The position numbers were made by a program, and so were the translations under genes. A DNA stretch of 64,000 nt from an uncultured Bacteroidales bacterium (GTDB lineage Bacteria > Bacteroidota > Bacteroidia > Bacteroidales > UBA11471), in contig CANQDQ010000007.1 in assembly GCA_947593515.1 (NCBI GenBank), forward strand, positions 14,484-78,483. The letters are read 5' to 3'. Within the stretch, counting starts at the first letter, position 1. Each line of letters opens with the position of its first letter. Under the pieces are notes generated by a model, which had not been told where the DNA came from, did no database searches, and saw only the letters and a program-made list of their open reading frames with translations. Below are positions 1,781-22,015 of the stretch, one piece after another.

Positions 1781-2842
1781 TTATTTTACAGGTGCTTCCT
1801 CGCCGTGCACTCTCGCCAGACTGATGAATATCGTGGACAAGATAGTGAACACGTAGGCTTGTATGAAACTTATCAATACGTCGAGAAGGTTCATGAAAAG
1901 TGAAAAGAGTACTGCCAATACGGTGGTTCCCGCCAGTACTGCCGTGCCCATGGCTCCGAAGATGAAGATGAGCGATATGAGCACCAGCACAATCAGGTGT
2001 CCGCCCATCATGTTGGCGAACAGACGAATCATCAACGCCACCGGTTTGGTGAGGGCGCCGAACAACTCGATGACGGGCATCAACGGTATGGGACACTTCA
2101 TCCACATGGGAACCTCCGGCCAGAAAATATCTTTCCAGTAATGTTTGGTTCCGGTAAGATTGACCACGAGGAACGTGCAGAGTGCCAGCACCATCGTAAC
2201 GGCGATATTTCCCGAGAGGTTGGCTCCGGCGGGGAATATGACCATCAATCCCAAGATGTTGATGAAGAAGATGAAGAAAAATACCGTCAGCAGATAGGGG
2301 GCATACCGTTTGGCGTCGCGCCCCAATACGGGTTTCACGAGGTCTTGGTATATCATGTCGATAATCAGCTCCATAAAGCCGTAGCCTTTGCGCGGCGCTC
2401 CATGCGGGTGCTTGCGATACCAGCGTGCCATCGGAATGAAGCAGAGGCAGAGCAGCGCGGTGGCGATGAACAGCGCCATCACGTTTTTGGTAATCGACAG
2501 GTCGAGCGGACGATAGGCATTGCCGTCGGCGTCGAGGGTTACCACCTTGCCTTTGAGCTCACCTTCCTGCGGAATGAAATAGCCGTTGTAAGTCTCCCCG
2601 TGAGCGACGCGGTGCGACCCGAACACGCTCCATTCGCCCTCGTGGTTGCGGACGATGATGGGCAGCGGTATGCGCATCGTGTGGGAAAACGGCACTTCCC
2701 AACCGTAATTGTCGAGCAGGTGCTCGAAAATGGTTTCTTTGGCATCGAAAGTCCCACTCTCTTCTTCGGCACGCACCGGCAGAGTGCACGCCGCCATGAC
2801 GGCGAGAAGCAGAAGCATTCGATAGAATATCGTTTTTTTCAT
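1781..2842 (-). CDS. atpB: Fo ATP synthase subunit a (with long N-terminal extension)
   Basis: 353 aa. The C-terminal half carries the a-subunit helices, including the essential Arg motif LMIRLFANMMGGHL. The N-terminus is signal-like, followed by about 100 extra residues, as recalled for other Bacteroidota. Confidence 0.85.
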   Translation of the reverse strand: MKKTIFYRMLLLLAVMAACTLPVRAEEESGTFDAKETIFEHLLDNYGWEVPFSHTMRIPLPIIVRNHEGEWSVFGSHRVAHGETYNGYFIPQEGELKGKVVTLDADGNAYRPLDLSITKNVMALFIATALLCLCFIPMARWYRKHPHGAPRKGYGFMELIIDMIYQDLVKPVLGRDAKRYAPYLLTVFFFIFFINILGLMVIFPAGANLSGNIAVTMVLALCTFLVVNLTGTKHYWKDIFWPEVPMWMKCPIPLMPVIELFGALTKPVALMIRLFANMMGGHLIVLVLISLIFIFGAMGTAVLAGTTVLAVLFSLFMNLLDVLISFIQAYVFTILSTIFISLARVHGEEAPVK

Positions 2843-2867
2843 CTCTGTGTCGTTTTTCTGTCGAATA

Positions 2868-3101
2868 TCATTTCAAGCATACGGCAACCCGATTGTTGTT
2901 TACATCGACAAAACCGCCCTCGATTTCCACGCTTTTCACTTCGCCGCCGCTTTCGTATTCGAGCGTTCCGGCGCGGAGGGTGGAGAGCAGGGAGGCATGG
3001 TCTTGCAGCACGGTAAACGAGCCGAGCGTACCGGGCAGCGTTACCCGAGTGGCTTCGCCTTGGAAAAGGATTCCGGTAGAAGATATGATTTCGAGATTCA
3101 T
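2868..3101 (-). CDS. atpC: F1 ATP synthase epsilon subunit (short form)
   Basis: 77-aa beta-sandwich-only epsilon (ISSTGILFQGEATRVTLPGTLGSFTVLQDHASLLS) immediately downstream of atpD. Confidence 0.8.
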   Translation of the reverse strand: MNLEIISSTGILFQGEATRVTLPGTLGSFTVLQDHASLLSTLRAGTLEYESGGEVKSVEIEGGFVDVNNNRVAVCLK

Positions 3102-3119
3102 GGCATGAACGATTTAAGA

Positions 3120-5722
<2,603 letters not shown>

Positions 5723-5755
5723 ATCGTTTTGCTGTTTTATTGTTCTTACTTATTA

Positions 5756-7387
5756 TTATCGGTCTATATCGGGAACGACGTAATCGAGCGAAGCTCCGAT
5801 AGCTATCAGGTCGGCAATTTTCGCGCCGCGCGCCAAATGGTCGATTGCGCCCACCAACGCATATCCGGGCGATACAACTTTGAGGCGGTAAGGCGTTTTG
5901 TCACCGCGGCTTTCGAGATAGATGCCGAATGCGCCGCGCGATGCCTCCACCTGCTTGAAGTAGCGACCTTCGGGCACTTTGATAATCGGTTTCGTCTTCA
6001 CGGCATAATCGCCTTCGGGTATATTATCGACGAGCTGTTCGAGAATGCGGAGCGACTGTTCTATCTCTTTCATACGCACCATATAGCGCGCGTAGGAGTC
6101 GCCTTCGGTCGCAAGCACCTCGTCGAAATCCACTTTGTCGTACACGCCGTAAGGGGTGCGTTTGCGCACGTCGCACGCCCAACCCGATGCCCGTCCCGAA
6201 GGTCCGGTGGTGTTGTAGCGCACCGCATCTTCGAGCGAAAGATGCCCCACGCCTATCAGGCGGTTGCGGGCGATGACGTTGCCTGAGAATACTTCGTGAT
6301 ACTCTTTCAGCCGGTCGGGCATGATACGTATGAAATCCTTGACCTTGCGCCGGAAGTCGGGGTGTATATCCGCCATGACGCCGCCGATGGTGTTGTAGTT
6401 CATCGACATTCGCGCACCGCACGTGTCTTCGAATATATCGAGTACCAATTCTCTTTCTCTGAATCCGTAGAAGAATGCCGTCAAGGCGCCGAGGTCCATC
6501 GCCATCGTAGCGAAGAAAAGCAGGTGCGACGAAATGCGCATCAGCTCGTCCATCATCGTGCGAATGTACTGCGCCCGCAACGGCACTTCGAGTTGCAGGG
6601 CGTCTTCGATGCACATGCAGAGGGCGTGGCGGTTCTGGTGCGCCGACAGGTAGTCGAGACGGTCGGTCATGTGCAGGGTCTGCGGGTAAGTCATGCCCTC
6701 CCACAACTTTTCGATGCCGCGATGTATATACCCGCAGTGGACGTCGATTTTCTTTATCACTTCGCCGTCGAGGGCGGTGCGGAAACGCAGCACGCCGTGC
6801 GTGGCGGGGTGCTGCGGCCCGATATTCACGATATAGTCGTCTTTGCCGAAAATCTCGACGATTTTCTTTTCCGGCTTGCCGTCGGGGGTCATCGACCACG
6901 ATACGGTGGTATCGCTGCACTCCTCGTTGTTTTCCGGTATCGGATTGTTTTCGCGGCTGGTGTCGTAGTCTTTCCGGAGGGGGTATCCGTACCAGTCTTC
7001 CCGCAGGAAGATGCGGCGCATATCGGGGTGCCCGATAAAGCGTATTCCGAAGAAATCATAAACCTCGCGCTCTTCGAACAGGGCGTTCGTCCATATATGA
7101 CTTACGCTGTACAGCAGCGGATTTTCGCGGTCGGTCGTGGAAGTTTTGAGAATAACCCAATGATTGTATTTGACGGAGTTGAGATAATAAACGACACCCA
7201 GCGAGTCGCCCCAGTCGTTGCCCACCAGCGCCACGAGGTTGTCGAATTGCAAATCGGCATCGTCGTGCAGATAAGCCGCCAATGCGGGCAGCTTTTCGGC
7301 AGGCACCGCAAAGGTGGGGTACTGCCCCGCCTCCGCAGAGGCTTCGGGCATGAATGCGCTTATTTTCTCCTGTATATCTGTCATCAA
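5756..7387 (-). CDS. nuoCD: NADH-quinone oxidoreductase fused subunits C/D
   Basis: 543 aa. The N-terminal NuoC-like part has EREVYDFFGIRFIGHPD. The C-terminal NuoD-like part has NIGPQHPATHGVLRF and ends ...VVPDIDR. Confidence 0.9.
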   Translation of the reverse strand: MMTDIQEKISAFMPEASAEAGQYPTFAVPAEKLPALAAYLHDDADLQFDNLVALVGNDWGDSLGVVYYLNSVKYNHWVILKTSTTDRENPLLYSVSHIWTNALFEEREVYDFFGIRFIGHPDMRRIFLREDWYGYPLRKDYDTSRENNPIPENNEECSDTTVSWSMTPDGKPEKKIVEIFGKDDYIVNIGPQHPATHGVLRFRTALDGEVIKKIDVHCGYIHRGIEKLWEGMTYPQTLHMTDRLDYLSAHQNRHALCMCIEDALQLEVPLRAQYIRTMMDELMRISSHLLFFATMAMDLGALTAFFYGFRERELVLDIFEDTCGARMSMNYNTIGGVMADIHPDFRRKVKDFIRIMPDRLKEYHEVFSGNVIARNRLIGVGHLSLEDAVRYNTTGPSGRASGWACDVRKRTPYGVYDKVDFDEVLATEGDSYARYMVRMKEIEQSLRILEQLVDNIPEGDYAVKTKPIIKVPEGRYFKQVEASRGAFGIYLESRGDKTPYRLKVVSPGYALVGAIDHLARGAKIADLIAIGASLDYVVPDIDR

Positions 7388-8547: not shown

Positions 8548-9693
8548 ATGACAGAAAAAATAAGCGAATCGATTACGCGCGGGGAGTCTATAAAACTATA
8601 TCCCCTGCTTGCGCCGGCGGCATGGCTGTACGGCGCAATCGTATGGATACGCAACCGTCTTTTCGATTGGAATCTGCTGCCGAGCGAGAGTTTCGACATT
8701 CCGGTGATAAGCGTGGGAAATCTCACTGCCGGCGGCACGGGGAAAACACCCCATATCGAGTACTTGATACATATGCTCACGGGGGCATCGTACCGCGTGG
8801 CGGTGCTCAGTCGCGGCTACAAACGCCACACGCACGGATTCAGGCTCGTAACCATGACTTCGACGGCTGCCGAAGCCGGCGACGAACCGTTGCAGATAAA
8901 GCGGAAATTTCCGACCGTCATTGTCGCCGTCGATGCCAATCGCCGGCGGGGCATATCGCGGCTGCTCCAACAAGCGCCCGACATCGACGTGATACTGCTC
9001 GACGACGCTTACCAGCACCGCTCTGTCGTACCGGCCGTTTCCATTTTGCTCACCGGCTACAACCGCATGATTTACGAAGACAAACTGCTGCCCGTAGGGC
9101 GGTTGCGCGAACAGGTTGCGGAAAAATCGCGCGCCAATATCGTCGTCGTTACCAAATGTCCGGACTCGTTAAAGCCCATCGACTACCGGCTGTTGTCGAA
9201 GCACCTCAACCTCTACCCTTACCAGTCGCTCTACTTTTCCGGTCTGCAATACGAAGAATTGAAGCCCGTTTTCCCGAACGGAAAAGCGAAACTCATTTCG
9301 TTGGAACAGTTGAACGAGCCGCAGAGCGACGCGCTGATTATCTGCGGTATCGCCTATCCGCAACCCTTTATCGAATATATCGAGCGGTATGTTCCGCAGC
9401 CGAAAGTGTGGAAATACGGCGACCACCACGAATTTTCGGCGCAAGAGTTGAAAAAAGCGGAAGCGTGGGTGAATGCCTCCTGCGAACAGGGGCACAAATG
9501 CCACATCATCGTTACCGAAAAAGACGCCGCCCGCCTCATCGACAACCCCGATGTGCCGAAGCTGTTGAAAGAACATCTCTATTACCTTCCCCTGCATATC
9601 CACTATATGCTCGAACAGCAGGAGGCTTTCGATACGCAAATCAAAGACATGATTACCCGCTTCCGCCGCCGCATGGTGGAGCGGAAAAAATAA
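8548..9693 (+). CDS. lpxK: tetraacyldisaccharide 4'-kinase
   Basis: P-loop context VISVGNLTAGGTGKTPHIEYL is typical of LpxK. Start moved to MTEKISESI (ATG 8548) inside the 419-aa track ORF. Confidence 0.85.
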   Translation: MTEKISESITRGESIKLYPLLAPAAWLYGAIVWIRNRLFDWNLLPSESFDIPVISVGNLTAGGTGKTPHIEYLIHMLTGASYRVAVLSRGYKRHTHGFRLVTMTSTAAEAGDEPLQIKRKFPTVIVAVDANRRRGISRLLQQAPDIDVILLDDAYQHRSVVPAVSILLTGYNRMIYEDKLLPVGRLREQVAEKSRANIVVVTKCPDSLKPIDYRLLSKHLNLYPYQSLYFSGLQYEELKPVFPNGKAKLISLEQLNEPQSDALIICGIAYPQPFIEYIERYVPQPKVWKYGDHHEFSAQELKKAEAWVNASCEQGHKCHIIVTEKDAARLIDNPDVPKLLKEHLYYLPLHIHYMLEQQEAFDTQIKDMITRFRRRMVERKK

Positions 9694-10532: not shown

Positions 10533-11591
10533 ATGGAAGAAAAAAAACGTACGGAAATAGCGGCATTAGGAGAATTCGGTCTGATTGACCGGCTCACAGA
10601 AAACCTGCCGCTCAAAAACGCCTCCACCCTCAAAGGCGTGGGCGACGACGCCGCCATACTCGACTACAAAGAAAAACGGGTGCTCGTTACGACCGACCTC
10701 CTGCTCGAAGGCATACATTTCGACCTCACCTACGTGCCCTTGAAACATTTGGGCTACAAGTCGGCAGTGGTCAATTTCTCCGACATCTACGCCATGAACG
10801 GGCAGCCGCGCCAAATCACCGTATCGCTCGGCATTTCCAAACGATTCTCCGTCGAAGACTTGGAAGAGTTGTACGCCGGCATACGTCTTGCCTGCGACAT
10901 CTACGGCGTCGATCTCGTGGGCGGCGACACCTCCGCCTCCATGACGGGGCTGACGATAAGCATTACCTGCATCGGCGAAGGCGATGCCGACAAAACCGTC
11001 TGCCGCAACGGGGCGAAAGAAAACGACCTGATATGCGTCAGCGGCGACTTGGGCGCCGCCTATATGGGCTTGCAGCTGCTCGAACGCGAAAAAGCCGTAT
11101 TCGCAGGTGAGAAAGATTTCACGCCCGCCTTCGAGGGCAGGGAGTATCTGCTCGAACGCCAGCTCAAACCCGAAGCCCGCAAAGACATCGTCGCCGAACT
11201 TGCCAAACGCGACATCGTGCCCACCGCCATGATGGACGTCTCCGACGGGCTTTCGTCGGAGCTGCTGCACATCTGCCGTCAAAGCGGGACGGGCTGCCGC
11301 ATCTACGAAGAGCGCATACCCATCGACTACCAAACCGCCATGATGGCGGAGGAGTTCAACATGAACCTCGTAACGGCGGCGCTCAACGGCGGCGAAGATT
11401 ACGAACTGCTTTTCACCGTGCCGCTGACACGGCACGACGACGTCGCCGCCATGCCGGGCATACACATCATCGGACACATCACGGCGCCGTCGTTAGGCTG
11501 TTGCATGATAACCCGCGACAACACCGAAATAACGCTGCGCGCACAAGGGTGGAACTCGCTCGCCGAAGACGCCCCGAAAACCGAATGCTGA
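10533..11591 (+). CDS. thiL: thiamine-monophosphate kinase
   Basis: 352 aa. N-terminal LGEFGLIDRL...GVGDDAAIL, with AIR-synthase-like N and C domains. Confidence 0.85.
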   Translation: MEEKKRTEIAALGEFGLIDRLTENLPLKNASTLKGVGDDAAILDYKEKRVLVTTDLLLEGIHFDLTYVPLKHLGYKSAVVNFSDIYAMNGQPRQITVSLGISKRFSVEDLEELYAGIRLACDIYGVDLVGGDTSASMTGLTISITCIGEGDADKTVCRNGAKENDLICVSGDLGAAYMGLQLLEREKAVFAGEKDFTPAFEGREYLLERQLKPEARKDIVAELAKRDIVPTAMMDVSDGLSSELLHICRQSGTGCRIYEERIPIDYQTAMMAEEFNMNLVTAALNGGEDYELLFTVPLTRHDDVAAMPGIHIIGHITAPSLGCCMITRDNTEITLRAQGWNSLAEDAPKTEC

Positions 11592-11624
11592 AACTGAAAA
11601 TTAACTCTATAAAATTTTTTTGCA

Positions 11625-12689
11625 ATGAAAACAAAATTCTTACTCCTCGCAGGAGTCGCCGCACTCCTCTCCGCCTGCGGCGAAAAGTACACCATCACCG
11701 CCAACTGCGACGAAAGCGACAACGGCACGCAAGCCTATCTCTACGACCTGATGACCGGCGACGCCATCGACAGCTCTGTCGTAACCAACGGAAATATCGT
11801 ATTCAACGGCAGCCTCAACGGCGACGCCAAATTATGCCGCATTTCGTTTGCATCGGGATATTCGGATATATTCGTGCTCGAAGGCGGCAACATCGTTTTC
11901 GAGAGTGAAAACGCTGCGGGTACCCCTCAAAACGATTCCATACAAAGTTTCATCAACGCGTGCATAAATTCCCGCACACAGCACGTCGAAGCCTATAAAG
12001 CGCTCGACCGCAATGCCGCCGATTACAACGAACAAGTCGAAGCGATAAGCAACGCCATGCGCGACGACATCGGCAAAATATGCACCGGCTACATAGAGGC
12101 AATGCCCGGCAGCCGCGTCGCTACCTACTGCCTAATCAACTGGCTGCCCATGCTTGCGTTTGAAGAAGATCTCCTCGACAAAGCCGTTGCATACGCATCG
12201 GAAACCGACCTGCAATATCCCGATATTCAGAAATATATCAAAATAAACAATGCCCGCAAAACTACTGCAAAAGGGCAGATGTTCACCGACTTCACCATCG
12301 AAAACGGCAACCTCGACAGCACCGCCGTATCGCTCTCCGACTACGTGGGCAAAGGCAAATACATTCTGGTCGATTTCTGGGCTTCGTGGTGCGGACCCTG
12401 CCGTGCCGAAATACCGAACGTCAAAGAAGTATATAACCGGCACCACGGCGACCGCTTCGACATCGTAAGCGTTGCCGTATGGGACCAGCGCGACGCCACC
12501 CTCAAAGCCATCGAAGAATTGGCGCTGCCGTGGAATCAAATCATCGATGCCGGTGATATTCCCACCAAACTCTACGGCATTCCGGGCATTCCCGAACTCA
12601 TACTCTTCGCTCCCGACGGCACGATTGCCGCTCGCGGACTGCGCGGCGACGTATTGAAACAAACCGTTGCCGACGCCCTCGCCCAATAA
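11625..12689 (+). CDS. TlpA/AhpC-like thiol-disulfide oxidoreductase lipoprotein
   Basis: Lipobox LLSAC near the N-terminus. C-terminal thioredoxin fold with WASWCGPC. Confidence 0.8.
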   Translation: MKTKFLLLAGVAALLSACGEKYTITANCDESDNGTQAYLYDLMTGDAIDSSVVTNGNIVFNGSLNGDAKLCRISFASGYSDIFVLEGGNIVFESENAAGTPQNDSIQSFINACINSRTQHVEAYKALDRNAADYNEQVEAISNAMRDDIGKICTGYIEAMPGSRVATYCLINWLPMLAFEEDLLDKAVAYASETDLQYPDIQKYIKINNARKTTAKGQMFTDFTIENGNLDSTAVSLSDYVGKGKYILVDFWASWCGPCRAEIPNVKEVYNRHHGDRFDIVSVAVWDQRDATLKAIEELALPWNQIIDAGDIPTKLYGIPGIPELILFAPDGTIAARGLRGDVLKQTVADALAQ

Positions 12690-12750
12690 TCCGGCGCGCC
12701 GAAACCGCATAACACGCGGGGCGGGAAATTTCCCGCCCCGCTGTTTTTTT
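12670..12750 (+). repeat. direct repeat DR1, copy A (3' end of the TlpA-like gene + spacer + terminator)
   Basis: Recurs at 17247-17326. The first 63 nt differ only at 12703 (a vs g) and 12730 (t vs c). The remainder is a diverged but still self-complementary hairpin plus a T-run. Confidence 0.9.
12716..12750 (+). terminator. rho-independent terminator
   Basis: Perfect hairpin GCGGGGCGGGAAATTTCCCGCCCCGC followed by TGTTTTTTT. Confidence 0.85.
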
Positions 12751-12831
12751 ATCCCCTCACCCTCAATATTAGGGTAATCTATAAAAATGTAAAAAATAAT
12801 AATTATTCTTTGCCAGCAATATATAAAATAT

Positions 12832-12839
12832 TATCTTTG
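12832..12839 (+). promoter_or_regulatory. -7 promoter box TATCTTTG for the islet operon
   Basis: Exact TAnnTTTG in a very AT-rich leader, 57 nt before the ACP ATG. Confidence 0.5.
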
Positions 12840-12895
12840 CCGCACATTTGAAAATACAGCAATATAAAGGACTCATTGTAAAAGACTTTTTTAGC

Positions 12896-13123
12896 ATGGA
12901 TATCCACAAATTCATCAAACAATTAGCAGAACAATTCGACGATACGGATCCGTCGGAAATAAAACCGGACACAAAGTTTCAGGAACTTGAAGATTGGAGT
13001 TCCCTAACGGCAATGGGCATCATCGCCTTTGTCAAAACCATCTACGGAAAAGAAATTACAGGACTCGAGATTCGCTCATGCAATACAGTAGCAGATTTGT
13101 TCCGTATAGTTTCCAATAAATGA
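12896..13123 (+). CDS. orphan acyl/peptidyl carrier protein
   Basis: 75 aa from MDIHKFIKQLAEQFDD. The putative phosphopantetheine site is LEDWSSLTAMGIIAFV (WDSL-type carrier proteins of polysaccharide loci). The stop overlaps the next gene's start (ATGA). Confidence 0.75.
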   Translation: MDIHKFIKQLAEQFDDTDPSEIKPDTKFQELEDWSSLTAMGIIAFVKTIYGKEITGLEIRSCNTVADLFRIVSNK

Positions 13124-13870
13124 ACGAAGATATTTACAATCCCTTTACGCTCAAAGGGAGGAGAGTACTCGTTACCGGCGCATCATCAGGTATCGGACAG
13201 GGAATTGCCATTGCCTGCTCACAAGCCGGAGCAAGCGTAATTCTCAATGGACGAAATGAAACGCGCCTTGCCGAAACGATCGCTCTGATGAAAGAGGGCG
13301 AACATCGTAATTGTAGCCGCCGATTTGACAGACGCCCTGTCGGTAAAAGATGCCGTATCAATGCTACCCAATCTCGACGGTATCGTACATTGTGCCGGCA
13401 TCGGACAGCGCATTCCATGCCGTGAATTGAGAGAAGACGACATCGATGAGGTCATGAATACCAATTTCAAAGCCCCTGTCATGCTTCAAGCCGAGATTCT
13501 CAGACAAAAGAAAATGAATCGGGAAGGGTCCATCGTATTCATTGCTTCCATTGCCGCCGAATCCCCCTCCATGGGAAATGCCGTATACAGTGCCTCGAAA
13601 GGGGCTATCATCTCGTATGCAAACTGTCTCGGGGTAGAATTGGCGCCACGCCACATTCGGGTAAACTGCATAAGTCCGGCAATGGTTCGTACCGGACTGA
13701 TATTCAAAGGAGCCGTAACAGAAGAAGCCTTGAAAGCAGACGAGGCACGATACCCGCTGAAACGATACGGCACTCCTAAGGATATTGCCTATTTGACTGT
13801 CTATATGTTGTCGGAAGCGTCGGCATGGATGACCGGAAGCAACGTAAAAATAACGGGGGGGGGCAAATAG
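13120..13870 (+). pseudogene. SDR-family 3-oxoacyl-ACP reductase-like gene interrupted by a 1-nt frameshift near 13309
   Basis: Frame 1 reads VLVTGASSGIGQGIA...MKEGEHR, then nonsense to a stop at 13425. The frame open from 13292 continues IVAADLTDALSV...NAVYSASKGA... to 13870. Dropping one A in cgtAAtt restores a 249-aa SDR with TGxxxGIG and YxxxK intact. Confidence 0.8.
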
Positions 13871-13881
13871 CCTAATAAACA

Positions 13882-14880
13882 ATGGCTTATATTAAAGGAA
13901 TAAGTTACTGGCTTCCTGAAAAAATCGAATCCGTCTCAAAACTTGTTGAGGAATTTCCTGAATGGGACGCAGAGAAAATAATACGGAAAGTTGGCGTGTC
14001 ATCACGCCATATTGCCGGCAAAAATGAAACGGCGGGCGACCTCGCTGAAAAAGCGGCACGAAAACTATTCGCCGAATATGCTATTTCACCCCGTGAAATA
14101 GATTTCGTGATGCTTTGCACCCAAAGTCCGGACTATTTTTTACCCTCGACCGCCTGCCTGCTTCAACACAGGTTGGGCATACCGACCACAGCCGGCGCAT
14201 TCGACTACGACCTCGGCTGTTCGGGGTGCATTTACGGGTTAGCGCTCGCCAAAGGGCTGATTTCGAGCGGAACAGCCAACAACGTATTGCTACTTACCGC
14301 AGAAACATACAGCAAATATCTTCATCATTCGGATAAGAGCAACCGTTCCATATTCGGCGATGGGGCTGCTGCCTGCTTAGTCTCTGCGGAGGGTGAGGCG
14401 GAAATCGGCAATTTCGTGTTAGGTACTGACGGCAAAGGGGCAGAGTATCTTATTGTCCGCTCAGGGGCTGCGCGCATGAGGGAAAAAACAGGGTATGCAA
14501 CGACCGACGAAGAAGGGCATACAAAACATGACGATTATCTCTATATGAACGGGGGAGCTATCTTCAATTTCACCCTCGATGCCATTCCGAAAATGAAGCA
14601 GCAAGTGCTACAAAAAAATTGTATGGAAGCAAATGAGATAGATTTATACGTATTTCACCAAGCCAACAAATTTATGCTCGATACCCTCCGCAAAGTGTGT
14701 GTCATCGACAAAGACCGATTTTACGTAGATCTTTCCACAACGGGAAATACGGTATCGTCCTCCGTATTTATCGCCTTGAAAGAGTGTATGGACACAAAAC
14801 GCATTCAGAAAGGTATGAATGTCATGATAGCGGGATTCGGTGTAGGGCTGAGTTGGGGCGGAACTATTCTAAAATTCTAA
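13882..14880 (+). CDS. 3-oxoacyl-ACP synthase III family (KAS III / FabH-like)
   Basis: 332 aa with a Cys-His-Asn triad in context: DLGCSGCIYGL, FHQANKFML, GNTVSSS. Confidence 0.85.
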   Translation: MAYIKGISYWLPEKIESVSKLVEEFPEWDAEKIIRKVGVSSRHIAGKNETAGDLAEKAARKLFAEYAISPREIDFVMLCTQSPDYFLPSTACLLQHRLGIPTTAGAFDYDLGCSGCIYGLALAKGLISSGTANNVLLLTAETYSKYLHHSDKSNRSIFGDGAAACLVSAEGEAEIGNFVLGTDGKGAEYLIVRSGAARMREKTGYATTDEEGHTKHDDYLYMNGGAIFNFTLDAIPKMKQQVLQKNCMEANEIDLYVFHQANKFMLDTLRKVCVIDKDRFYVDLSTTGNTVSSSVFIALKECMDTKRIQKGMNVMIAGFGVGLSWGGTILKF

Positions 14881-14884
14881 ACCT

Positions 14885-16309
14885 ATGTTATTTAATTCAC
14901 TTGAATTTCTACTGTTTTTCCCCATTGTTTGCATCATTTACTTTGGGATTCGTTCCGATCGGTGGAGAAATATTTTCCTCCTCGCGGCAAGTTACTACTT
15001 TTATATGTGCTGGGAGCCCGTCTATGCCTTGCTGCTATTGGCAAGCACGGTCATCACTTACACCGCAGCAATAGGCATTGACCGTTGGCGAAAGTATGCA
15101 CATACCTTTCTCATCATTTCCGCAGTTGCCAATCTATCTATTCTTTTTTTCTTCAAGTATTTCAATTGGGCGGCAGAGAATCTTTCCGAACTCATGGCAT
15201 TATTCGGAGTGGTTATGAACGTACCTGAATTCAATGTGCTTCTGCCCGTAGGAATATCATTTTACACGTTTCAAGCATTGGGATATTCCATCGATGTCTA
15301 TCGGGGCACGACTGCGGTAGAGAAAGACTTTCCGACCTATGCGCTTTTTGTCTCGTTCTTTCCCCAGTTGGTGGCGGGTCCTATCGAACGCTCCACCAGC
15401 CTGCTCCCGCAATCTCGGGAACACCACCGTTTCGACGGCGACCGCGCTATTACAGGTATTCACCTGATGCTTTGGGGCTTCTTTCTAAAATTGGTAGTGG
15501 CAGACAACTGCGCTCTTGTCATAAATACAATCCATGACGGTCTCGAATCGGCAACTCCAGCAGATATGTTTCTCGCAGCCTTTCTCTTCTGCTTCCAATT
15601 ATATGGCGATTTCGCAGGCTATTCTTATATTGCTATCGGAGCATCTCGGGTAATGGGCTTTCATTTGATGGACAACTTTCTACGCCCTTATTTCTTTTCC
15701 ACCTCGGTGCAGGAATTTTGGAAAAGGAATCATATTTCACTGACTACATGGTTTATGGATTATATCTATTATCCGCTTGTCGGCAGCAGTACAAGCCTTG
15801 CCCGATGGTGTTTTTGTATTTTTTTCACCTTTTTTCTCTCCGGATTTTGGCATGGTGCCAATTGGACTTATGTAGTCTGTTTCAGCATCTTCGGTATCTA
15901 TCTCGTAATCTGTACTCTCAAAGCACGCGCCCAAAAACGTTTTGAAAAGCGCTACGGTCTCCGCAACAAAGCGTGGTGGATATGGACAAACCGCGTAATA
16001 ACGTTCCTGTTGGTCATGTTAGCTCTCGTATTCTTCCGTGCCGACAACATCAATGATGGTTTCCATATCATAAAAGGCATCTTTACATATTTCTCCGATA
16101 TAACATTACCGTCTATCCTCCCCAAGCGTGTAATAGCAAGTGTCGGACTGCTGTTTTGCATCGAATATTTAGTGGAATACGGCAAAGCCCAATCATTTGC
16201 TGCACGTCATTTCCTGCCTGCCTATATATGTTCAAGCCTGCTGCTTCTGCTCCTTATTGCTTTTATCGGCAATTTCAGCGGCGGACAGTTCATCTATTTT
16301 CAATTCTAA
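14885..16309 (+). CDS. MBOAT-family membrane O-acyltransferase (AlgI/DltB-like)
   Basis: 474-aa polytopic protein. It starts MLFNSLEFLLFFP, has FWKRNHISLTTWFMDYIYYPL, and carries the conserved His in GFWHGANW. Confidence 0.85.
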   Translation: MLFNSLEFLLFFPIVCIIYFGIRSDRWRNIFLLAASYYFYMCWEPVYALLLLASTVITYTAAIGIDRWRKYAHTFLIISAVANLSILFFFKYFNWAAENLSELMALFGVVMNVPEFNVLLPVGISFYTFQALGYSIDVYRGTTAVEKDFPTYALFVSFFPQLVAGPIERSTSLLPQSREHHRFDGDRAITGIHLMLWGFFLKLVVADNCALVINTIHDGLESATPADMFLAAFLFCFQLYGDFAGYSYIAIGASRVMGFHLMDNFLRPYFFSTSVQEFWKRNHISLTTWFMDYIYYPLVGSSTSLARWCFCIFFTFFLSGFWHGANWTYVVCFSIFGIYLVICTLKARAQKRFEKRYGLRNKAWWIWTNRVITFLLVMLALVFFRADNINDGFHIIKGIFTYFSDITLPSILPKRVIASVGLLFCIEYLVEYGKAQSFAARHFLPAYICSSLLLLLLIAFIGNFSGGQFIYFQF

Positions 16310-16333
16310 TTCTGATAAATTATATTCCGAAAA

Positions 16334-17266
16334 ATGAAACATTTTCTGATATATATTGCAGCTGTGCTGCTCTTTGTTATCCCGTTCCTGTGTGTCGGAG
16401 AATGGCTTGTTCGACAAGTACCGAATGCATATCGCTACAAAGAAGAATGGATGGAAGCCCATCATAACGAAGTGAATACTCTTATCTTAGGAAATTCACA
16501 CTCATACGCTGCGGTCAAACCCGACATGATGGATAAGGATACATTCGGCGTAACATTCAATCTCGCTAATTTCTGGCAAACACTCGACATGGATTATTTC
16601 CTGTTGCAAAAATTCGATTGTCCCCAATTAAAAACGCTGCTTATCCCGATATCTTATCCGACTTTTTTCTTCGAAAATATGGGAGTTTCCCCAAAAAGAT
16701 TGATTTACTATAAATTGTATATGAACTATCCCGCCAAACCATTTTACAGCAATTTTGAATTTTTCGACCTGCAAACTTTTGGCACGAAAGTTCGTGCTTT
16801 CTTCTTTCCGCCCGAAGACGTAGGATACGACAAATACGGGTGGACAACATCTTACAAGTTGAAATATAAAGATCCGTTACTCATGCTTAACGGAGATGAG
16901 GCACGTACTCACACACGTAAGAAATGGAAAGAAGCGGTGGAAATCTCCGAAAAAAATTACGCCATTCTGCAACACATTGCCGACGACTGCAAACAACGAG
17001 AAATAAAACTCGTGCTTTTTACGACACCCGCATGGTATTCCTACCGCAATCTTATCGACAGCCGCCAATTTGCAAGAATGCACGAACTTATCACACGGTT
17101 TCTGCAACAAAACGAGGGGACAATGTATTTTGATTATTTGGCCGATTCCCGATTTACAGACGAAGACTTTTGCAACAGTAATCATCTATCGGACATCGGA
17201 GCAGAAAAATTCACAAAAATTCTCTGTAATGACATAGAGGAACAAACCGACGCCCTCGCCCAATAA
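16334..17266 (+). CDS. membrane-anchored DltD/AlgJ-like (SGNH-like) partner protein
   Basis: 310 aa with an N-terminal TM anchor. LILGNSHSY resembles SGNH/DltD block I and NSNHLSDIGAEKF resembles block V. It lies directly after the MBOAT gene. Its last 6 codons and stop lie inside DR1 copy B. Assignment is tentative. Confidence 0.5.
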   Translation: MKHFLIYIAAVLLFVIPFLCVGEWLVRQVPNAYRYKEEWMEAHHNEVNTLILGNSHSYAAVKPDMMDKDTFGVTFNLANFWQTLDMDYFLLQKFDCPQLKTLLIPISYPTFFFENMGVSPKRLIYYKLYMNYPAKPFYSNFEFFDLQTFGTKVRAFFFPPEDVGYDKYGWTTSYKLKYKDPLLMLNGDEARTHTRKKWKEAVEISEKNYAILQHIADDCKQREIKLVLFTTPAWYSYRNLIDSRQFARMHELITRFLQQNEGTMYFDYLADSRFTDEDFCNSNHLSDIGAEKFTKILCNDIEEQTDALAQ

Positions 17267-17326
17267 TCCGGCGCGCCGAGACCGCATAACACGCGGGGCG
17301 GGAAATCTCCTGCCCGCGTGTTTTTT
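17247..17326 (+). repeat. direct repeat DR1, copy B
   Basis: See 12670-12750. It supplies the codons DALAQ* to the upstream ORF and a terminator hairpin. Confidence 0.9.
17290..17326. terminator. bidirectional terminator shared by the islet operon and the convergent ATPase gene
   Basis: Hairpin CACGCGGGGCGGGA/TCCTGCCCGCGTG followed by TTTTTT. The ATPase stop codon is about 15 nt further on, on the opposite strand. Confidence 0.7.
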
Positions 17327-17341
17327 ACCTCGATACGCGGC

Positions 17342-18688
17342 TTACTTCAATCCCGACAAATCCACCTTATAATAAGACGGCGCGGCTTGATTTTTTTCGA
17401 GAAACATCACCATATAAATCGGGGCATACACGATTTTACCCGCCACGCGCAGGTTGTCGCTGTTGAAAACAATTGCCTCCGGCAGGTCGTATTCTTCGCA
17501 CGCCATGATGTTCGACAAGGCGCGATGGCTCTCGTAGTCCTTGCCCGATTTCACTTCCAGAGGCAGCACCGCACCGCCGAGTTCAACGACAAAATCGACC
17601 TCCCCGCGTTTTTTGTTGTTATAGTAGTAAGGCTCCAACCCGTGCGCCACCAACTCCTGCGCCACTGCATTCTCGTATATTGCGCCGTAATTTATATTCT
17701 TATCGCCCTTGATGATACGCAGTTGAATGCCTTCGGCATATTGTGCCGCCAGCAATCCGACATCGTTCTGAAAAAGTTTGAACAGATTTCGTGAACGGGC
17801 AAGCAGCAAAGGCATCTTCGGTTCCTCCACGTTGTACACCGGCAATGCCACGCCGGCATTTTTCAGCCAAACGAAACCGGTTTCGCAGCGGTCGAATTTC
17901 GCATTTTCATTCAACCGTTTCAAAATGAAGCGTTTATTTTTCGCATTGAGTTCCGGCGGAATAAGTTCGAATATCTCTTCGAGATAGAGTTTGTCTTTCA
18001 AATCATATTGGGCAATATCGCGCTTATACAGCCGGATAATATCCTGCTGTATCGTCATGACTTCCTGCAAATTGTTGTTTTCCATATACTTGCTCACCAC
18101 CGCAGGCATACCGCCCACCACCAGATAGAGGCGGAACAGTTCCATGATTTTCCGATGGACGAACGCATCGACCGGCGTGCGATGCTCCCACGCCGAACGC
18201 AACGCGGCGACGACCTGTCCGTCGATGCCAACACAAGTAATAAACTCCTCGAAATCGAGCGGATACATCTCCTTGATGCCCATATACCCCACCGGCTCGG
18301 AACGCAGGTCGCGCAACTCCACCCCCAACAGCGAACCGCTCAAAATGTATCGGTAAGAGCCTTCATCGACCAAAAATTTAATGGCGGTTACTATATCCGG
18401 ACACCGCTGCACCTCGTCGAAAAAAATCAATGTCCGACCTTTGACAAGCGGCGTCGCCGTCATTGCCGAAATGCGGAACAGAATCTCGGCGGCACTCTTT
18501 GCACCCTTGAATATTTCCACCGCATCGGGATTCTCCACAAAATTGATTTCGATAAAACTTTTGAACGTCTTGCCAAATTCCCGAATCGAAAATGTCTTGC
18601 CGGTTTGTCGGGCGCCGGTAACCAACAAGGCACTGCGCGTGTGCGCGTAATAATTCCGGAGATAGGCATCTATTTTTCTTCGAATCAT
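17342..18688 (-). CDS. AAA+ ATPase with C-terminal DUF4143 / PD-(D/E)xK-like domain (COG1373 type), copy 1
   Basis: 448 aa. Walker A GARQTGKT, Walker B LIFFDEVQ, and C-terminal GEVDFVV...LPLEVKSGK (D...ExK nuclease-like motif). Confidence 0.8.
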   Translation of the reverse strand: MIRRKIDAYLRNYYAHTRSALLVTGARQTGKTFSIREFGKTFKSFIEINFVENPDAVEIFKGAKSAAEILFRISAMTATPLVKGRTLIFFDEVQRCPDIVTAIKFLVDEGSYRYILSGSLLGVELRDLRSEPVGYMGIKEMYPLDFEEFITCVGIDGQVVAALRSAWEHRTPVDAFVHRKIMELFRLYLVVGGMPAVVSKYMENNNLQEVMTIQQDIIRLYKRDIAQYDLKDKLYLEEIFELIPPELNAKNKRFILKRLNENAKFDRCETGFVWLKNAGVALPVYNVEEPKMPLLLARSRNLFKLFQNDVGLLAAQYAEGIQLRIIKGDKNINYGAIYENAVAQELVAHGLEPYYYNNKKRGEVDFVVELGGAVLPLEVKSGKDYESHRALSNIMACEEYDLPEAIVFNSDNLRVAGKIVYAPIYMVMFLEKNQAAPSYYKVDLSGLK

Positions 18689-18726
18689 AATCTATTTATA
18701 TTTGATTTACAGCGAGATAGTTGTTT

Positions 18727-18857
18727 ATTTGCCGTTTTTCCATGACAAATATATACTGTTTTTGCCGTTTTTCCAAGAAAAATAATGGAATTTTTGCCGC
18801 TTTTCCAATATAAAATCGCCCCGTTTTTGCCGTTTTTCCATTTTTTTGCAAGGAAAT
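18727..18857. repeat. array of four ~33-bp units sharing the core TTTGCCG(T/C)TTTTCCA
   Basis: The core gccgtttttcca occurs at 18731, 18764, 18796 (gccgcttttcca) and 18829, spaced 33/32/33 nt. The inter-core segments are not conserved. Confidence 0.8.
18746..18753 (-). promoter_or_regulatory. -7 promoter box TATATTTG for ATPase copy 1
   Basis: The reverse complement of caaatata matches TAnnTTTG, 58 nt upstream of ATG 18688, between repeat units 1 and 2. Confidence 0.45.
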
Positions 18858-18889
18858 AGCGGGCGATAATCGCCCGTAACTTCGTGCCC
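18812..18889 (+). repeat. direct repeat DR2, copy A
   Basis: 78 nt recur at 21940-22015 with 3 substitutions and 3 single-base gaps, two in T runs and one in a short C run at the distal end. Contains repeat unit 4 and the palindrome CGGGCGATAATCGCCCG. Confidence 0.9.
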
Positions 18890-18936
18890 AAAAAGAAAAC
18901 GCGAGGTGGGAATTTTCCGCCTCGCGTCCGTTTTTA
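18890..18936. terminator. bidirectional terminator downstream of the LRR gene
   Basis: Hairpin ACGCGAGGTGGGAATTTTCCGCCTCGCGT, flanked by a T-run in the sense of each strand. Confidence 0.75.
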
Positions 18937-18955
18937 TTGCTTTGTCCGATTCATT

Positions 18956-21463
18956 CTATCGGACAATTATCATCGTCTTGCCGTTCACGATGTAGGCACC
19001 GTTCTGTAACGTTTTGAGGTCGGCGGCATCATCGGTTTCGAGTACCAACACGCCTTGCAGATTATATACCGTTATGTGTCCGTCGGTTTGCTGCGTTTCC
19101 GTTATCGATGACGGCTCGTCGGGTTCTACGGGCTCCGGCTCTTTTATCGTGTAGGTATAGGTGAGTTCGGGGTTGCTATGTCCCGTTTTCGGGTCGGCGG
19201 CAAAGACGTCGTCGCCGAATGTTCCTGCCGGAATTACGAGCAGATAAGTTCCTGCTTCGGTCAGGCTGTATTCGGCAGCCTTTGTCTGTTCGTCGCCTTG
19301 CAGGGCAATGATGAAACTTTTTCCGTCTTCACTCGCTGTAATGCGGGCGGGATAGTATGCCGAGCTGTCTGCTTTCATCACCGTTGCCGAGTCGCCCACG
19401 AGGGCGGGACGCTCGTCGAAAGCGAGCGTAAAGGTGGAGAGGGCGGTTATCGTTTCGTCGTTTTCAGCAGGAGTTATCGTCGGTGCGGCTTCGAAGTCGT
19501 ATGCCACGATCGGCAATATCGTTCCGAACTCCTTCCACCCTTCGGCGGCTTTATACTTTTCTACCGATTCGGCAGGTACATACAACGTACAGATGGAACA
19601 ATCCGTGTCCGAAAAAGTTATTCCGCTTAAATTCGGCGGTATCGGATTATATATGGTTATTTTTGTCAAACTCGAACAATACGCAAAAATCTGCATACCG
19701 ATGTTTTGAATGTTACTCCTTATCGTTACCTCATTCAACTTGGAGCAATTGTAAAAAGCGCCTTGCTCAATAGTCGTAACACTCTCCGGTATCGTTATCG
19801 AAGTCAAGCTCTCGCAGCGGATAAAAGCACTGATCCCGATAGTCGTAACACGATTGCCCATCGTTACAGAAGCCATGTTGCCGCAGTCGTAAAAAGCCTT
19901 GTTGCCAATAATTAAAACATTATCGGGAATTATTATCGACTGCAGACTCGCGCAATAATAAAAAGCCCCGTCTCCGATAATGGTAACGCTATTGGGTATG
20001 GTTGCTGAAATCAAGCCATTACAACCATAAAAGGCGTATGAGCCGATAACCGTAACGCCTTCCGGTATCGTTACCGATTCCAGACCCGAACACCGTTGAA
20101 AAGCTCTATCACCGATAATAGTTACCCCTTCGGGTATGGTATAATCTGCTACTCCACATTTCGGTGCAAAGGCTATAAACAAAGTGTCATTTACGATAAG
20201 GCTGCAATAATCGTCCGTTGCAAACTTTCCCTTGAATTTTTCAATATTCGTACAGCCACGAAATGCCCCAGAAGCAATAGAGACAACACTCTCCGGTATC
20301 GTTACCGACGTTAAGCCGACACAATCCTCAAAAGCAGCCTCGCCGATAGTGGTAACACTCTCCGGTATTGTTACCGATGTTAACTCTGAGCAACCGGAAA
20401 AAGCACTGCTGCCAATAACTTTAACTTCGTCCGGTATGGTATATTGAGTCAATCCACTCGGTGCAAACGCTTTCAAGGTATCATCTACGATAAGACAGCA
20501 ATGATCGTTCGATGCCAATGGTCCATCAAATTCTTCCAAACTTTCACAACCAAGAAAAACTCCGTCGCCGATAGTCATACTGCTGCTGCCTATCGTTACA
20601 TTTGTCAAACTCCCACAATCCAAAAAAACTTCGTCGCCGATAGCGGTAACGCCGTTACCTATCATTACCGACGTTAACACTCTGCAAGAGTGAAATGCCC
20701 GATTGCCGATAGTGGTAACACTGTTGGGTATCGTTACCGATGTTAAATTCCTGCAATAGTCAAAAGCCTTATTACCGATAGCAGTAACACCCTCGTTTAT
20801 TTTTACCTCTGCTAAACGCGAACAACTCGAAAAAGCAGCATCTCCTATCAAAACGACGTTTGCCGGTATCGTTACCGATTCCAAAGCAGAGCAACCGGAA
20901 AAAGATCCAGTGCCGATAACCTTAATATTTTCAGGTATAATATAGTCATTCAGCCCGTTTGGCGCAAAGGCTTTCAACGTATCCTTTATGATAAGACAGC
21001 GCCCTTCTTCCGCAGCAAATTTTCCTTCAAAATATACCAACGACACACAACCTGAAAAAGCCCTGTCGCCGATAGTGGTAACACCGTCGGGTATCGTTAT
21101 CGACGTCAAACGGCTGCAATTGGCAAAAGCTCTTTCGCCAATAGTGGTAACGCTTTCGGGTATTGTTACCGATGTCAGGTATGTGCAACCCTCAAAAGCA
21201 TAGTCGCCGATAGAAGCAATACCATCACTTACCGTTACCGAATTAATCGAAGTGCGATAATTATACCATGGGGTCTTCCTTTCAGCATAATTTCTCATGG
21301 CTCCCGTACCGGAGATTTCGAGGACACCGGTTTCGGTATCGAGTTTCCATGTAACATTGGCACTGCAATAGCCGCTGTAGATTTCGGCTTGCACCGTTGC
21401 CGCTCCGCCCCACAAGAGCGCGGACAGCAACATAAAAAACAGTGTGCGTTTCATTTTTGTCAT
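18956..21463 (-). CDS. BspA-type leucine-rich-repeat surface protein with T9SS C-terminal sorting domain
   Basis: 835 aa with a signal peptide. About 25 copies of the ~23-aa unit xSVTIPxSVTxIGxxAFxxCxxL. C-terminal ITVYNLQGVLVLETDDAADLKTLQNGAYIVNGKTMIIVR is a typical T9SS CTD. Confidence 0.85.
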   Translation of the reverse strand: MTKMKRTLFFMLLSALLWGGAATVQAEIYSGYCSANVTWKLDTETGVLEISGTGAMRNYAERKTPWYNYRTSINSVTVSDGIASIGDYAFEGCTYLTSVTIPESVTTIGERAFANCSRLTSITIPDGVTTIGDRAFSGCVSLVYFEGKFAAEEGRCLIIKDTLKAFAPNGLNDYIIPENIKVIGTGSFSGCSALESVTIPANVVLIGDAAFSSCSRLAEVKINEGVTAIGNKAFDYCRNLTSVTIPNSVTTIGNRAFHSCRVLTSVMIGNGVTAIGDEVFLDCGSLTNVTIGSSSMTIGDGVFLGCESLEEFDGPLASNDHCCLIVDDTLKAFAPSGLTQYTIPDEVKVIGSSAFSGCSELTSVTIPESVTTIGEAAFEDCVGLTSVTIPESVVSIASGAFRGCTNIEKFKGKFATDDYCSLIVNDTLFIAFAPKCGVADYTIPEGVTIIGDRAFQRCSGLESVTIPEGVTVIGSYAFYGCNGLISATIPNSVTIIGDGAFYYCASLQSIIIPDNVLIIGNKAFYDCGNMASVTMGNRVTTIGISAFIRCESLTSITIPESVTTIEQGAFYNCSKLNEVTIRSNIQNIGMQIFAYCSSLTKITIYNPIPPNLSGITFSDTDCSICTLYVPAESVEKYKAAEGWKEFGTILPIVAYDFEAAPTITPAENDETITALSTFTLAFDERPALVGDSATVMKADSSAYYPARITASEDGKSFIIALQGDEQTKAAEYSLTEAGTYLLVIPAGTFGDDVFAADPKTGHSNPELTYTYTIKEPEPVEPDEPSSITETQQTDGHITVYNLQGVLVLETDDAADLKTLQNGAYIVNGKTMIIVR

Positions 21464-21497: not shown

Positions 21498-21939
21498 GTC
21501 TGAAAATGTAAATTTACAAAACTTTCCGCTAAAAATTTTTGGTTTCATTCGCAAAATGCTCTCCGAATCGGAAAAGTACAATCGTTCTTTTTTCATGTTT
21601 CAAAAAATTTGTGCCCGCTGTTCCCCGACAAGGCGTTAATAATAAATTGGATATAATAAAAGCGTGAGGAACAATTTCCGTTTATCTTACAAGAGGTATC
21701 GCCAAACACCCGTAGAGAAATAAACAGCTACCCCACGCCTGCCATATATGAACACCTCACGGCGCATATCGGCTGCATGAGCGTTTGTACTGTCTTTCCT
21801 TCTCTACAAAACTTTGGCGAAATTTCTTGTAAAGGATAAAACGAAACGCTTTACGAATCAATCGTTTGCGGAGAACCGCCGTTCCCCGTATCGCCACAAA
21901 GATAGTAAAATAACTGATTACTTGACGCTTTCTCAATAC

Positions 21940-22015
21940 AAAATCGTCCCGTTTTGCCGTTTTTCCATTTTTTGCAAGGAAATAGCGGGCGATTATCGTC
22001 CGTAACTTCGTGCCA
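21940..22015 (+). repeat. direct repeat DR2, copy B
   Basis: See 18812-18889. Here the palindrome is degraded to CGGGCGATTATCGTCCG. Confidence 0.9.

Follow-up and report, generated by a model that had tools for sequence, protein, structure and literature searches.

This report concerns a stretch of 64,000 nt from an uncultured, gut-type Bacteroidales bacterium (contig CANQDQ010000007.1; hereafter the window, whose positions serve as coordinates throughout) and, more specifically, a five-gene cassette within it that lies between two long direct repeats. To its left is the gene of a TlpA-like thiol:disulfide oxidoreductase of 354 aa (tlpA; 11625..12689, + strand), an open reading frame (ORF) with Pfam matches to AhpC-TSA, Redoxin, Thioredoxin_8, and DUF4369. 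To its right lies a convergent ATPase gene (17342..18688, − strand; 448 aa, Pfam AAA_14/DUF4143), the right-hand neighbor of the original site. The insert proper (12759-17246; 4,488 bp) consists of a promoter region and five genes, placed in the short spacer between tlpA and the ATPase gene. Judged from the alleles carried by related contigs, the locus appears to be a presence/absence polymorphism, with filled and empty alleles in at least two sub-lineages.

The cassette and its flanking repeats

Copy A of the repeat (12670..12758, + strand, 89 bp) comprises the ADALAQ codons and the TAA of tlpA, a spacer, a hairpin (12711-12745), a T7 run, and the bases A(T)CCCCTC. Copy B (17247..17331, + strand, 85 bp) likewise holds the tlpA end, a spacer, a hairpin (17288-17322), a T6 run, and ACCTC, with the original right flank following directly. 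The target gene is thus tlpA, of which the last six codons and the stop codon have been duplicated. Over 80 nt (12670-12749 versus 17247-17326) the copies are 93% identical, with 12703 (a/g) and 12730 (t/c) as the sole mismatches of the first 63 nt; overall, copies A and B of one genome are set apart by 6-7 substitutions and 2-3 gap columns. A first reading of the same DNA (the original prediction, made from the sequence alone) had described the content of both copies correctly, the two mismatches included. Its repeat length of about 80 nt has to be extended, as the duplicated target reaches 89 bp in the alignment with L091, a relative with an empty site. There, positions 1977-2065 align to 12670-12758 and also to 17247-17331, and they take in the final six codons of tlpA with its stop codon, the terminator shared by the two genes, and 7 nt more. 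Both hairpins still fold, as had been claimed (copy A at −31.6 kcal/mol, z −3.5; copy B at −30.8 kcal/mol, z −3.1), and both were called terminator-like. The ATPase gene does end at 17342, 15 nt past the T-run of copy B. Rfam, run on the window and on the related locus L093, returned tRNAs only, far from the locus, and terminal inverted repeats were not found in the insert besides the hairpins themselves.

Could the repeat be a dispersed terminator of the repetitive extragenic palindromic (REP) kind, occurring twice here by coincidence, as the original prediction had itself considered? A GC-rich hairpin followed by a T-run is the kind of structure known to form repeat families. Nevertheless, a 60-mer and a 25-mer of the repeat match the window only at the two copies (≤3 mismatches; 0/100 shuffles matched), an exact 26-mer has no match in the JGI metagenomes, each copy includes 20 nt of tlpA coding sequence, and relatives carry orthologous sites with a single copy. 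We therefore give this explanation next to no chance and consider it refuted for practical purposes.

The cassette begins with a 5' non-coding region of 26% GC (12759..12895, + strand), which contains a Bacteroidota-type −7 box and a palindrome. The box, TATCTTTG (12832-12839, + strand), is the predicted promoter of the cassette and lies in this AT-rich leader, whereas the palindrome, ACCCTCAATATTAGGGT (12759-12775), occupies the very left end of the insert. In L103, another filled locus, the palindrome (9135-9151) reads ACTCTCAATATTAGAGT, a double change by which the inverted repeat is kept.

The five genes that follow all lie on the + strand. The first encodes an acyl carrier protein (ACP; 12896..13123, 75 aa), with a DWSS phosphopantetheine-attachment motif, a Pfam PP-binding match just above the cut-off (21.6 versus 20.8 bits), and weak NCBIfam matches to acyl carrier proteins. 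The second is a frameshifted gene for a FabG-like short-chain dehydrogenase (SDR; 13120..13870; Pfam and NCBIfam). It is followed by the gene of a β-ketoacyl-ACP synthase III (KASIII, FabH-like; 13882..14880, 332 aa; Pfam ACP_syn_III and ACP_syn_III_C), whose NCBIfam match to PRK09352 scores 269 bits against a cut-off of 249. The fourth product is an MBOAT membrane O-acyltransferase (14885..16309, 474 aa; Pfam MBOAT) that most resembles DltB, with a match to TIGR04091 DltB (E 4e-41) that at 141.6 bits stays under the family cut-off of 375.

The fifth gene (gene 5; 16334..17266, 310 aa) encodes a membrane-anchored protein of predicted SGNH fold, DltD/DUF1574-like. The product itself has an N-terminal membrane helix and no Pfam match. 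Its AlphaFold2 (AF2) model (pLDDT 91) adopts the SGNH fold and, in Foldseek, matched GDSL acylhydrolases and DltD structures (E about 1e-4, TM about 0.4). Among family members, Pfam DUF1574 was matched in 17/18 (weakly) and DltD in 1/18, and GDSL matches occurred as well.

The original prediction of an own promoter box and five same-strand genes thus stands for the box and the gene count, with the restriction that the SDR gene is frameshifted in the window. The frameshift consists of an extra A at 13309/13310 (cgtAAttg versus cgtAttg) and is common to L001 and L008, which are other assemblies; the gene is intact, with 257 aa, in L006 and L103 and also intact in L104-L105. The frameshift is a real pseudogenizing mutation and no read error. 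Farther downstream, a poly-G tract (13855-13863) counts G9 in the window and G8 in L006, a difference that alters the C-terminus of the SDR as well as the overlap with the start of KASIII (13882); the tract is a candidate slipped-strand switch. Also in line with the original prediction, the five ORFs are all biosynthetic, without an integrase, transposase, or insertion sequence (IS) terminus among them, and no integrase or transposase was found in the Pfam tables of the surrounding ±10 kb.

Empty, filled, and disrupted alleles

The original prediction had pointed to related genomes as the place to look for the site without the cassette, and exact empty sites (tlpA, one repeat copy, ATPase gene) were indeed found in five contigs (L091, L107, L109, L110, and L111) from at least five samples. 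Contig L091, retrieved via an exact-protein look-up of P0001 (TlpA 94% identical), consists of tlpA, one terminator, and the convergent ATPase gene, with no cassette between them. In blastn, its positions 1-2065 correspond to window 10705-12758 (94.8% identity) and its positions 1977-3976 to window 17247-19234 (93.1%). The other four come from samples other than that of L091 and carry a TlpA allele 96% identical. In these empty-site strains the ATPase gene adjoins tlpA, the target gene, which is present at the site in both L091 and L107. More distantly, the outgroup L092 (TlpA 57% identity) shows tlpA, a tlpA paralogue, and a lactamase_B gene, and has neither cassette nor ATPase gene at the site. 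The nearest named TlpA homologues are those of Coprobacter sp. (55%), and a TlpA protein search of genome contigs yielded, among the matches listed, best hits at paralog level only (≤40%) and no close relative.

An assembly artefact was considered as the source of the empty sites and rejected. Only 33 nt are exactly common to copies A and B, and the single copies keep A-type states far to the right of this stretch. Since they are not chimeras joined at the 33-nt overlap, and since Logan contigs (k=31) run unbroken through the single copy in empty samples while they break off at the repeat in filled ones, the empty sites are not products of assembly. The five empty sites and the cassette-free L092 support an ancestral layout, probable from sequence comparison and already supposed in the original prediction, in which two convergent genes shared one terminator and the cassette was dropped in later.

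Filled alleles, on the other hand, were found in L001/L005/L096, L006, L007, L009, L095, and L103-L105. The same junction, GGAACAAA^CCGACG (with the caret marking the joint), is common to at least nine filled loci (the window, L001, L006, L007, L009, L095, and L103-105); in longer form, the right junction of the filled alleles reads ...GAGGAACAAA^CCGACGCCC. At this point gene 5 takes its last 5-6 codons and its stop codon from copy B, as an in-frame fusion to the duplicated tlpA end. The resulting C-terminus, ...QTDALAQ*, made of borrowed tlpA codons, is found in 16/16 inspected variants (down to ~89% amino-acid identity) of the 43-member cluster formed by gene 5 at 90% identity. Homologues of gene 5 are conserved through ...KILxxDI and then have their own endings within 3-10 residues, as in P0123 (70% identity, ending ...HDILANQ*), so the native 3' end of gene 5 was cut off here. 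Because all filled loci share one junction and all 16 gene 5 variants end in QTDALAQ, the cassette appears to have been inserted in one single event. This event seems to be old, with the cassette having co-diverged with its flanks. Between the window and L103, cassette segments are 93.4-98.7% identical and flanking genes 92.4-97.3%, and with divergence so similar the cassette has not been hopping between lineages.

The insert also appears to be of foreign origin, given its lower GC, its absence from L092, and the occurrence of the same five genes elsewhere. At 44.1%, the GC content of the cassette lies below the 51.9% of the window, in which no other 4.5-kb stretch is lower; its GC content at third codon positions (GC3) is 0.45-0.54, against 0.61 +/- 0.10 outside. 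The original prediction of a clearly lower GC inside the repeats therefore holds in direction, but the drop is only moderate. Most of the signal stems from the leader, the ACP gene, the MBOAT gene, and the last gene, the part from ACP to KASIII is close to the average of the genome, and the neighboring ATPase and BspA genes are low in GC too.

The original prediction had also advised looking for the cassette in other contexts, and it was found in one: L093 contains the same five genes at 72% DNA identity in an unrelated setting, preceded by an unknown gene and followed by a HigB/HigA-like pair and nadB. Homology between the window and L093 starts exactly at the ATG of the ACP gene and stops 12 nt before copy B, and the region upstream of the L093 cassette shows no similarity to window 12759-12895. 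No repeats bracket this cassette, whose GC (50.1%) is about that of its contig (50.8%). Nor were bracketing repeats found at 38 other loci (≥7 kb) with a gene 5 homologue, nearly all of which have an adjacent MBOAT gene; the sole candidate among them, L132, proved to be two GT2 glycosyltransferase paralogues. As a separate observation on L093, a 67-nt nadB segment is duplicated (5709-5775 / 6810-6876, 81% identity) on the far side of the HigB/HigA-like toxin-antitoxin pair, which makes this a further case of a small insertion with part of a gene repeated at its flanks.

These data also bear on the possibility that the cassette is old and native to the site, in which case the repeats would stem from an unrelated local duplication and every empty site would be a secondary deletion between them. 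The cassette being as diverged as its flanks would suit such a history, as would the excess of filled over empty alleles among the contigs seen and the closer relation of the empty L091 to the filled L095 and L103 than to the window. It would, however, have to accommodate an outgroup without the cassette at the site, GC and GC3 values below those of the flanks, a gene 5 with a borrowed tlpA C-terminus where its homologues have their own, and a copy in the unrelated context of L093. Altogether, we judge a native cassette improbable.

The alleles furthermore bear the marks of a recombining population. Of the empty contigs, L091 resembles the filled L095 (98.2% in the ATPase gene) and L103 more closely than it does the window, whereas L107 is closer to the window; from these affinities the polymorphism is seen to exist in at least two sub-lineages. 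The window and L006 are 100% identical over 13882-17333 (3.4 kb of cassette plus copy B), with flanking genes at 97-99%; such mosaic identity fits homologous recombination, and the identical patch appears to reflect recent recombination or a sweep. Copies A, copies B, and single copies share the variants of their lineage (GCGC/ACGCGG/GC-TG versus CAAG/ACACGG/GTGTG), a compensatory pair in the hairpin included. In the terminator stem this is a change between lineages from ACACAC...GTGTGT to ACACGC...GC(G)TGT or the reverse (L091 2016-2053; window 12711-12745 and 17288-17322), and the hairpin of the empty L091 site is the most perfect one (−38.3 kcal/mol versus about −31 for the filled copies). 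Sharing of this kind needs either conversion between the copies or allelic recombination from each flank into its repeat.

Whether the repeats allow precise excision, as the original prediction had it, is answered only in part. Excision is plausible and the single-copy site exists, but the single copies are not simple chimeras, left of A and right of B, of the sampled alleles. Those of L091 and L107 are A-like throughout, while that of L109 is A-like on the left and B-like on the right, with a TCT loop and a T6 run. The idea that the single copies are A-left/B-right recombinants thus met with a mixed pattern. Allelic replacement by recombination in the flanks explains the polymorphism equally well as precise excision does.

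A third, disrupted allele is found in L180-L183 (at least four samples). Here the cassette homology stops at 13180, 60 nt into the SDR gene, and gives way to unrelated DNA whose opposite strand encodes an ORF6N-domain protein. The interruption is probably another mobile element or a rearrangement; the contigs end before its far side.

Origin of the insertion

With somewhat better than even confidence, we favor a one-off, old, recombinase-independent (illegitimate) insertion with target duplication, followed by homologous exchange of filled and empty alleles. Two routes could be envisaged. Either a linear fragment would have been joined into a staggered break, with nicks ~89 nt apart and the long overhangs filled in, or replication would have switched template to foreign DNA and returned about 89 nt upstream; both would leave a copy of the target on either side of the insert. 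The right end of the fragment would have fallen within the last codons of gene 5, which would then borrow DALAQ and a stop codon from the duplicated tlpA end. Copy A would terminate tlpA and insulate the cassette, which would use its own TAnnTTTG promoter, and copy B would terminate the cassette, opposite the ATPase gene. Filled and empty alleles would afterward be exchanged by ordinary homologous recombination in the flanks, and recombination between the two repeats may delete the cassette precisely.

The junctions themselves are compatible with microhomology-guided illegitimate joining, in a way that is only suggestive. On the left, the target reads ...TTTTTTTA(C/T)CCCTC^GATACG and copy A ...TTTTTTTA(T)CCCCTC^ACCCTCAATATT; the start of the cassette, ACCCTC, is a near-copy of the last target bases, giving a left junction ACCCCTC^ACCCTC. 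On the right, the cassette end ...GGAACAAA^CCG resembles the target GAAACAAACCG, 6 nt upstream of the formal boundary, so that the candidate microhomology AACAAACC is displaced by 6 nt.

Several points weigh against an illegitimate insertion. The 6-nt offset at the right junction has no explanation, and the microhomologies lack a donor sequence for comparison. The compositional signal amounts to only about 1.3 standard deviations in GC3. The lineage-specific states of copies A and B would be explained more directly by a duplication re-created at each integration. Literature searches gave no bacterial precedent for an 89-bp target duplication by illegitimate insertion. Finally, a second repeat-bracketed cassette (~80-110 nt repeats) next door hints at something more systematic.

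The original prediction had proposed two mechanisms, Campbell-type integration and a site-specific event with long att identity. Neither is supported as stated. In the Campbell-type scheme, a circle with the cassette and one 89-bp copy would enter by a single RecA-dependent crossover, the reverse reaction would excise it, and the circle could re-enter empty sites. Several features would follow naturally from this scheme, namely direct repeats that exactly match what the empty site has in single copy, the occurrence of both allele types in two sub-lineages, A and B copies with the variants of the local lineage, and the half A-like, half B-like copy of L109. Yet a circle in which a truncated gene 5 continues in frame into the 89 bp needs two prior illegitimate joins, and as the circle itself depends on these, the scheme can explain later spread and not origin. 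Moreover, cassette divergence tracks flank divergence with no sign of recent movement between lineages, the single copies of L091 and L107 are A-like to their right end where a chimera would be expected, and RecA acts poorly on homology of 89 bp with 7% mismatch. We give Campbell-type integration and excision, as a route of later spread and loss, about one chance in a handful.

The site-specific scheme supposes a non-autonomous element with long att identity at the tlpA 3' end, served in trans by an integrase encoded elsewhere. Integration at a gene 3' end that is restored, with flanking direct repeats, is the classical attL/attR picture, and the palindrome with its covarying pair at the left end of the cassette (12759-12775) could be taken in the same sense. 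It is nonetheless a very improbable explanation, as neither the cassette nor the surrounding ±10 kb contains an integrase, the right junction truncates the cargo gene, the related L093 cassette lacks att-like repeats, one junction is found in all alleles with the cassette co-diverged with its flanks, and no other cargo occupies the site in the relatives examined.

The hint from next door deserves a closer description. The ATPase (17342-18688, −) matches PADLOC's PDC-S01, a candidate phage-defense family (E 8e-198), and DUF4143 has been listed among PD-(D/E)XK nucleases (PMC3424549). Beyond it lies a second direct-repeat pair of about 80-110 nt (18776-18888 / 21904-22014; core 18806-18888 / 21934-22014), 92.5% identical over 67 nt and with only two copies in the window, which brackets a BspA leucine-rich-repeat (LRR) gene (18956-21463, minus strand) with its upstream region and a terminator. 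Both repeat-bracketed cassettes abut the ATPase gene, one on each side. The BspA-side repeat contains the palindrome GGGCGAT(A/T)ATCGCCC, and homology between strains breaks at about 18870-18899, the end of its first copy; beyond the break, L103 has a hexapeptide transferase and L107 an ATPase_2 gene and another LRR gene. An empty site for the BspA cassette was not found among the contigs seen. Upstream of the ATPase gene, within 18717-18840, the motif TTTTTGCCG(T/C)TTTTCCA is repeated 3-4 times, once every ~32 nt, and these copies may be binding sites of a regulator.

One could imagine that both cassettes are products of a dedicated, undescribed Bacteroidales process of cassette capture, flanking the PDC-S01 ATPase with its PD-(D/E)XK-type domain. 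Such a process would open the target by nicks some 90 nt from each other, or work through long att-like segments, and the resulting long target duplications would allow later precise loss. In both cases regulatory DNA is duplicated, a terminator for the acylation cassette and a promoter region for the BspA cassette. We give this idea little credence.

Among described mobile systems, the closest likeness is with the minimal mobile elements (MMEs) of Neisseria (Saunders & Snyder 2002 as cited in PMC1797815; also PMC3787668). MMEs are small cassettes without mobility genes between conserved flanking genes, as is the case here. They are present, absent, or replaced depending on the strain, as filled, empty, and disrupted alleles are found here between the same tlpA and ATPase genes, and they are exchanged through homologous recombination in the flanks, as the mosaic identity patterns suggest for this locus. 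They differ in not being defined by flanking direct repeats, whereas this cassette lies between the two copies of an 89-bp target duplication, which takes in a gene end and a terminator and to which one of the cargo genes is fused; the host here, moreover, belongs to the Bacteroidales.

Integrase-borne islands share the insertion at a gene 3' end, restoring direct repeats, lower GC, and a single-copy, att-like empty site. Unlike the present cassette, however, they carry an integrase, have defined ends with intact cargo, and keep their att repeats at other sites; here, no integrase is found, the right end truncates a cargo gene, and there is one ancient junction together with an L093 copy without repeats. 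Transposons and IS elements are likewise flanked by direct target duplications, but they have a transposase and terminal inverted repeats, neither of which is found here, and the duplication of 89 bp compares with target-site duplications that are usually 2-15 bp long. Having no recombinase, no defined ends, and no repeats at its other copies, the cassette appears to be cargo and not a self-mobile element. The locus reveals no new class of mobile element; apart from the unusual length of its target duplication, it is a presence/absence islet of a fairly ordinary kind.

Putative function and biological meaning

What the cassette does can be approached through the families to which its products belong; literature searches for this gene combination gave nothing directly relevant. 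MBOAT proteins that work with an SGNH partner form O-acyltransferase systems such as DltBCD, PatA/PatB, and AlgI/AlgJ, and DUF1574 is an SGNH family without known function (PMC9487903). In other genomes, the MBOAT gene almost always adjoins the gene 5 homologue, and one distant gene 5 homologue sits in an LPS-core-like glycosyltransferase cluster (LPS, lipopolysaccharide).

By analogy with these systems, the most likely role of the cassette is O-acylation of a surface glycan, the donor being a short (3-hydroxy)acyl group carried on ACP. KASIII and the SDR would build the short 3-hydroxyacyl group on ACP, the DltB-like MBOAT would pass it across the inner membrane, and the anchored SGNH protein would attach it to a glycan of the cell surface, such as LPS, capsule, or wall polymer. 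The Dlt pathway (DltA-D), PatA/PatB, and AlgI/AlgJ-AlgX likewise place an MBOAT beside an extracytoplasmic transferase of SGNH fold (PMC9487903), and Dlt, as the cassette with its ACP, employs a small carrier protein. In Dlt, however, a DltA-type ligase is present, whereas the cassette has KASIII and a FabG-like reductase in its place, which should load the carrier. Also, the Dlt partner is DltD, while the SGNH protein of the cassette is nearest to the uncharacterised DUF1574 family. The absence of DltA from the cassette tells against the proposed function, which draws on family membership only.

In the window strain, the pathway is probably altered or decaying, since the SDR gene is frameshifted. 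Taken together with the cut at 13180 in L180-L183, the frameshift implies that the pathway has been repeatedly inactivated or modified.

The locus thus documents an accessory cassette that has no recombinase and of which filled, empty, and disrupted alleles are all available. It also illustrates how a cassette may enter at a shared terminator in Bacteroidales, with the terminator duplicated, both neighbors terminated, and a stop codon borrowed. At the same time, it flags an uncharacterised pathway of ACP, KASIII, and SDR with an MBOAT and a DUF1574-like SGNH protein, which probably decorates a surface glycan; such surface traits bear on recognition by phages and by the immune system. The locus is well suited to the question of whether repeats of 80-90 bp drive the gain and loss of surface-modifying genes in gut Bacteroidales.

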